Part shown: one piece after another, positions 1-209 of the stretch | How positions within the stretch are numbered: the stretch's first letter is position 1 | Layout of the letters: each line of letters begins with the position of its first letter | Assembly: GCF_003334315.1 (NCBI RefSeq) | Contig: NZ_QOWR01000144.1 | Reading direction: 5' to 3' (one strand) | Length of the DNA stretch: 209 nucleotides | Source: Escherichia coli | Lineage (GTDB): Bacteria; Pseudomonadota; Gammaproteobacteria; Enterobacterales; Enterobacteriaceae | Position numbers and translations under genes: made by a program | The notes under the pieces: model-generated | The model's database searches: none | The model's input: the letters and a program-made list of their open reading frames with translations, nothing else | What the model was told of the DNA's origin: nothing

Positions 1-209
1 AATGGCAGTCACGCATCCAGTTAATAAAGCACTCGTGAAATTTTGCAGGACTGATACAGGATACAACTCTGGCAATGATATCGTGAACAGGAATACCATT
101 TTCAAAATCACCATATCACTTCAAAACATCGGGATGTGTTTCCCCAAAATCCTCTATATCTTCCCAACCTTCTGCACCAGAAATAACGGCACAAATAGTC
201 AACAGTAGA
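1..209 (-). pseudogene. ISAs1-family transposase (H-repeat-associated protein family), internal N-terminal-region fragment, interrupted by an in-frame TGA; partial at both window edges
   Basis: Seen in sequence: minus-strand translation in the frame of + coordinates 2..208 gives [30 protein letters not shown] (+ 119..208), then TGA (+ 116..118), then [38 protein letters not shown] (+ 2..115). Established knowledge, recalled from memory and not searched: E. coli H-repeat-associated proteins such as YhhI carry an N-terminal stretch of roughly ...[69 protein letters not shown].... That leaves only about 3 substitutions plus the stop over 68 codons. No start or natural stop of the gene lies in the window. 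Confidence 0.72.
1..209 (-). mobile_element. Internal fragment of an ISAs1-family insertion sequence (H-repeat element); element ends and inverted repeats lie outside the window
   Basis: Inference from the transposase homology above. ISAs1-family elements are about 1.2-1.4 kb with a single transposase ORF, so a 209-bp window inside the ORF cannot show the termini. The 40% GC (84 of 209 bases) fits a horizontally acquired element if the host is an enterobacterium, but the host is unknown. Confidence 0.6.
116..118 (-). other. In-frame premature stop codon (TGA) within the transposase reading frame
   Basis: Seen in sequence: + strand 116..118 is tca, which reads TGA on the minus strand, in the same frame as the conserved peptide on both sides. 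From memory, intact homologues have a sense codon here (Gln, or possibly Arg; a CGA to TGA change would be a single transition). Confidence 0.7.

Follow-up and report, generated by a model that had tools for sequence, protein, structure and literature searches.

The DNA considered here, referred to throughout as the window, is a stretch of 209 nt from Escherichia coli with a G+C content of 40% that lies in the interior of a 1,291-bp H-repeat (ISEc1) element of the ISAs1 family. It is read on its minus strand by the transposase gene of that element, and its positions 1–209 correspond to nt 87–295 of a 1,137-nt yhhI pseudogene, an assignment based on 100% identity to annotated yhhI pseudogenes. 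Codons 30–59 of the transposase, which form the end of a 59-aa N-terminal fragment and fall within the DDE_Tnp_1_assoc domain, occupy positions 119–208. They are followed by a premature TGA at codon 60 (positions 116–118), the inactivating lesion of the gene, and then by codons 61–98 (positions 2–115), which cover the rest of the DDE_Tnp_1_assoc domain. Within this last segment the ATG of Met94 (positions 14–16, minus strand) is the first start codon of a 285-aa downstream ORF (L001 3159–4016) that gene callers emit as the C-terminal half of the protein. On the plus strand, positions 2–208 carry a 68-codon antisense ORF that is in register with the transposase frame and that we regard, from the ORF listing, homology searches and codon resampling described below, as a shadow ORF and not a gene.

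The plus-strand ORF, running from an ATG at positions 2–4 to a TAG at positions 206–208 and encoding 68 aa, is the only one of at least 60 aa in the window, just as the initial annotation had described it. That annotation had also proposed that both ends of this ORF mirror codons of a transposase frame on the other strand, and the translations bear this out: the plus-strand ORF and the minus frame read from position 208 to position 2 share exactly the same codon boundaries. CTA, the first codon of the minus frame in the window (positions 208–206, Leu30), is the reverse complement of the plus-strand TAG, and CAT, the last (positions 4–2, His98), is that of the plus-strand ATG. The six-frame translation shows a single stop in this minus frame, the TGA at positions 118–116. 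The frame is open at both ends of the window, and in the full locus the gene continues on both sides, with a further 86 nt upstream and 842 nt downstream, so that the description of a minus-strand gene broken by a TGA and open at both ends is accurate.

The identity of the minus-strand product is clear from family searches. The translated peptide matches the ISAs1 family transposase model of NCBIfam (NF033564) with an E-value of 9.3e-24 and 84.2 bits against a curated cut-off of 70, and it matches Pfam PF13808 (DDE_Tnp_1_assoc) with an E-value of 1.5e-22 over model positions 24–88 of 88, the stop interrupting the match. Once this stop is masked, the full conceptual product scores 412.1 bits against NF033564 and covers model positions 1–314 of 314; the catalytic domain of the transposase lies beyond the limits of the window. 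This homology is far beyond chance, and a strong hit to these two families is what had been forecast from the letters of the sequence. A nucleotide search with the window against 5,426 complete E. coli genomes gave matches at 23,640 places in 5,214 of them, with a median of five copies per genome, and many of these matches are 100% identical to it. Around the identical matches the gene order is rbbA–yhhJ, yhhI, and then a HEAT-repeat remnant (yrhC), yhhH and rhsB. The window is thus almost certainly codons 30–98 of yhhI, the ISEc1 H-repeat transposase gene just downstream of the RhsB toxin locus, inactivated by a nonsense mutation and carrying an incidental antisense ORF.

The limits of the surrounding element were mapped by an alignment of the copies at yhhI and at ydcC (next to pptA) with one that adjoins a truncated dkgB and one that neighbours nrfB. 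In these four contexts the homology breaks off at identical left and right boundary bases, which defines an element of 1,291 bp (L001 3149–4439) with the window at L001 4001–4209. This element is the H-repeat (H-rpt) of Rhs elements, listed under the name ISEc1. The element has a G+C content of 40%, against 53% in its flanks, and is bounded by a short terminal inverted repeat, CAGGG[A/C]AAGAT, the ends being CAGGGAAAGAT and the reverse complement of CAGGGCAAGAT with 10 of 11 positions matching. These terminal repeats were missed by an inverted-repeat search using 8-nt seeds, and the copy alignment was used instead. The four aligned junction pairs showed no consistent target-site duplication, the most that could be found being a 4-nt ATGG at the dkgB copy, and scanning the complete element against Rfam with a permissive threshold returned no RNA family.

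Several features of the neighbourhood of these elements may be recorded here. Strain S10 has an ISEc1 copy whose transposase is intact (L008 478–1795) and which abuts a truncated dkgB, unlike the usual Rhs-tip contexts. This hints at an insertion or an IS-associated deletion, although the H-rpt, while annotated as an IS, has not been observed to transpose (E. coli W genome paper, PMC3032704). The HEAT-repeat-domain pseudogene beside yhhI (L001 4436–4786; yrhC in K-12, L003 5888–6133) ends no more than 3 nt from the left end of the H-repeat (L001 4439), and it seems that the H-repeat either truncated a HEAT-repeat ORF associated with the Rhs tip or arrived together with that ORF. Some strains with this yhhI allele also have a disrupted copy of the adjoining rhsB toxin gene, a pseudogene through a frameshift in E2865 and an internal stop in CP53; in ATCC 8739 the gene is intact (rhsB coordinates L001 5246–8209, L016 2746–3209 and L002 5246–8209).

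The nature of the lesion is best appreciated by comparison with other copies of the gene. Codon 60 is TGA in the window, whereas it is CAA (Gln) in K-12 and in four further copies whose frame continues past it; K-12, L008 and L011, which make up three of these five, are annotated as intact genes, and the yhhI gene of K-12 MG1655 (b3484) encodes an intact protein of 378 aa. Over the whole gene the window allele differs from K-12 yhhI at 23 of 1,137 nt without any indels, and these differences comprise 14 synonymous changes, eight amino-acid changes and the stop. All five of the differences that fall within the window are non-synonymous. The yhhI copy has no frameshift and no lesion of any kind besides the TGA. 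As the ORF is otherwise preserved and its divergence from K-12 is mostly synonymous, it is either a young pseudogene or one that has been kept similar to intact copies by recombination.

The start of yhhI is preceded by a consensus Shine–Dalgarno sequence, AAGGAG, with a 7-nt spacer, and no Shine–Dalgarno sequence is present upstream of Met94, where the 285-aa ORF begins. Translation from the canonical start would be expected to stop after 59 residues, inside the N-terminal DDE_Tnp_1-associated domain, and the TGA allele would then yield no full-length DDE transposase, as is typical of a nonsense pseudogene. We infer that neither strand of the window gives rise to a functional product. The coding sequence also contains, a short way upstream of the TGA, a terminator-like stem–loop followed by a T-rich run (positions 129–147, minus strand; L001 4147–4129). 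This is a consensus match only, in a region with three such sites against 1.4 ± 1.4 in shuffled sequences, and is probably due to chance.

The distribution of the nonsense allele was followed in complete E. coli genomes with 36-nt probes, for which every 28-nt seed was forced to contain both allele-specific bases. The TGA probe was found at 1,629 places in 1,422 of 5,426 genomes and the CAA probe at 18,465 places in 4,305 genomes. Two further states of codon 60 are rare: CGA (Arg) occurs at one place in one genome, and the stop codon TAA at seven places in as many genomes, in yhhI, ydcC and other copies. These could be either intermediates on the route from CAA to TGA or independent events, their rarity and indistinguishable backgrounds being compatible with both.

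The TGA allele is found at three or more non-orthologous loci. These include yhhI beside RhsB (L001 4116–4118), the ydcC locus of O157:H7, which has pptA and an RHS core gene as neighbours (L004/L005, about 1616–1618), and, in IHE3034 and strains related to it, a copy located downstream of the gene for a PAAR-like toxin (L017, within 2441–3205). Overall, the yhhI allele of the window is 98.3% identical to K-12 yhhI compared with 95.4% to O157 ydcC, yet it has in common with ydcC the haplotype 164C/169G/178T/179G/218T around the stop. A copy that is K-12-like overall with a ydcC-like patch at the stop is a mosaic, which suggests that H-repeat copies have recombined or undergone gene conversion with one another. 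The presence of one nonsense haplotype in H-repeat copies at several Rhs-associated loci points to the same process of copy-to-copy recombination.

The broad occurrence of the TGA allele is a reason to consider whether the interrupted gene might be a functional split. The 59-aa N-terminal fragment, which belongs to the putative DNA-binding domain, could act in trans as an inhibitor or regulator of other H-repeat copies, the 285-aa catalytic portion could be produced by a restart at Met94, or the TGA could be read through at a low level. The allele is both common and old, being found at 1,629 places and at three or more non-orthologous loci, and in the yhhI copy the frame is otherwise uninterrupted and the native Shine–Dalgarno sequence and start are intact. 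There are parallels in other IS families, where truncated N-terminal transposase products such as InsA of IS1, OrfA of IS911 and Inh of Tn5 inhibit transposition. Several observations nevertheless argue against any such split. The stop lies inside the Pfam domain and leaves only about half of it, Met94 lacks a Shine–Dalgarno sequence, and the five window differences from K-12 are without exception non-synonymous. Moreover, the sister TGA copies have decayed further, as expected for a pseudogene. In O157 ydcC, a 40-nt insertion made up of five tandem 8-nt AGCAGAAC units (gene nt 809 of the alignment, inside the L005 pseudogene 618–1795) and a separate 1-nt insertion both shift the frame on top of the nonsense mutation, and the IHE3034-type copy has suffered a 312-nt deletion and frameshifts. 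We therefore regard a functional split as very unlikely. Much the same low probability attaches to the more specific proposal that the TGA allele, which about a quarter of complete E. coli genomes carry and which occupies several loci, is being maintained with the 59-aa peptide as a trans-acting inhibitor or regulator of intact ISEc1 copies at Rhs toxin loci; if it were true, such a regulator could influence Rhs tip rearrangement.

On the opposite strand, the plus-strand ORF appears to be a consequence of the codons used by the transposase. In this register antisense stops arise only from the sense codons CTA, TTA and TCA. The stretch between the two ends contains three Leu and three Ser codons, none of which is CTA, TTA or TCA, and for this reason the opposite strand stays open, running as it would from a reverse-complemented His codon that reads as ATG to a reverse-complemented Leu codon that reads as TAG. 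When the YhhI protein was held fixed and synonymous codons were drawn from the usage of the gene itself, 56% of 2,000 resamplings gave an antisense ORF that starts with ATG and reaches 68 aa or more, and a longer antisense ORF of 79 aa exists elsewhere in the same yhhI gene. The length of the plus-strand ORF is within chance expectation.

Homology searches with the plus-strand peptide agree with this view, the initial annotation having anticipated that it would have no credible homologues. No family in Pfam or NCBIfam matches it, and neither the exact 68-aa sequence nor its O157 and K-12 variants are present among approximately 15 billion predicted proteins. The only homologues fall into six clusters, all named 'hypothetical protein' and found in E. 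coli and one Pseudocitrobacter genome, and at 77–94% identity to the peptide of the window all six are close variants of the same antisense ORF. The genomic context was read for two of the clusters, and in each the ORF is antisense to an ISAs1 fragment that adjoins a gene for an Rhs or PAAR toxin. Thus the minus-strand translation has significant family matches and no homology independent of ISAs1 elements was found for the plus-strand peptide.

The other way of reading the 68-aa ORF is as a genuine antisense overlapping gene for a small protein. There are published reports of such genes from E. coli O157:H7 (PMC9927249, PMC7103648), which provide a precedent, and the ORF is open in all 11 aligned copies, two of them (L010 and L012) having an indel and a different or shortened C-terminal sequence. 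This apparent conservation, however, only mirrors the 94–100% nucleotide identity of a young repeat family. Among the copies that keep CAA at codon 60, the window has 11 variable sites, of which nine are non-synonymous in the plus frame and two in the minus frame, and a count of 16 variable sites includes 13 that are non-synonymous in the plus frame, which argues against a protein-coding role on that strand. The ORF also lacks a Shine–Dalgarno sequence before its ATG, and scanning for promoter and terminator consensus sequences revealed no promoter-like site in the approximately 480 nt upstream, the numbers of sites matching those expected from shuffled sequences; together with the missing family match and a length reached in over half of the resampled genes, these results count against the proposal. 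No report of an EHEC antisense overlapping gene at this locus emerged from a literature search, and PMC9927249 does not mention the locus. We consider an antisense gene here to be extremely improbable, and the shadow ORF remains the preferred explanation of the plus strand. A last suggestion, that the TGA is a sequencing or assembly error in an intact gene, has nothing in its favour and is refuted by the identical 36-nt TGA context in 1,422 independently assembled complete genomes.

In practice the locus is handled well by current annotation. The initial annotation had expected automated pipelines to emit the 68-aa ORF and to miss the pseudogene, and this did not hold: RefSeq/PGAP labels the 100%-identical loci as yhhI, ISAs1 (ISEc1) family transposase, a pseudogene with an 'internal stop', and the 68-aa peptide is the one absent from the roughly 15 billion proteins searched. 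Only a handful of submissions hold miscalls related to the plus-strand peptide. The sense-strand fragments are encountered more often. The 59-aa N-terminal fragment appears as a 'transposase family protein' (WP_000420876.1) in some O157:H7 records and is found on at least 999 contigs in a large protein collection, and the 285-aa downstream product starting at Met94 is present on 123 contigs, with names that include 'H repeat-associated protein yhhI'. The general point is that when a short window yields a single called ORF, this may be the antisense shadow of a disrupted gene, a situation with which standard pipelines here cope correctly. All of this is established knowledge that public annotation already captures, from the locus and the element family to the status of the gene as a pseudogene and the phenomenon of shadow ORFs, and a long-known, routinely annotated IS pseudogene with a textbook shadow ORF carries little biological weight.

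Set against known systems, the plus-strand ORF resembles shadow ORFs, that is long antisense ORFs in register with a real gene, both in its register and in a length within the range of chance. It differs from the validated antisense overlapping genes of EHEC (PMC9927249) in having no Shine–Dalgarno sequence, promoter or sign of constraint. The closest relative of the minus-strand gene is K-12 yhhI (b3484), the H-rpt/ISEc1 transposase linked to RhsB, which is the same 1,137-nt gene at the same locus, with about 98% nucleotide identity and no indels; the K-12 gene differs in having CAA (Gln) at codon 60 and an intact product of 378 aa, the window allele having the TGA and, nearby, the changes L55P, F57V and T73I. 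As a member of the ISAs1 family (NF033564; PF13808 and DDE_Tnp_1) the element is typical in its full model coverage, single ORF, 1.3-kb size and short terminal inverted repeats, but this copy cannot encode a full-length transposase. The H-repeat pseudogene ydcC of O157:H7 shares both the codon-60 TGA and the L55P/F57V/T73I haplotype, and is 99.5% identical across the window. It is distinguished from the window copy by its different chromosomal locus and by its 40-nt and 1-nt insertions, and in some cases PGAP divides it into a 'transposase family protein' of 59 aa and a partial pseudogene.
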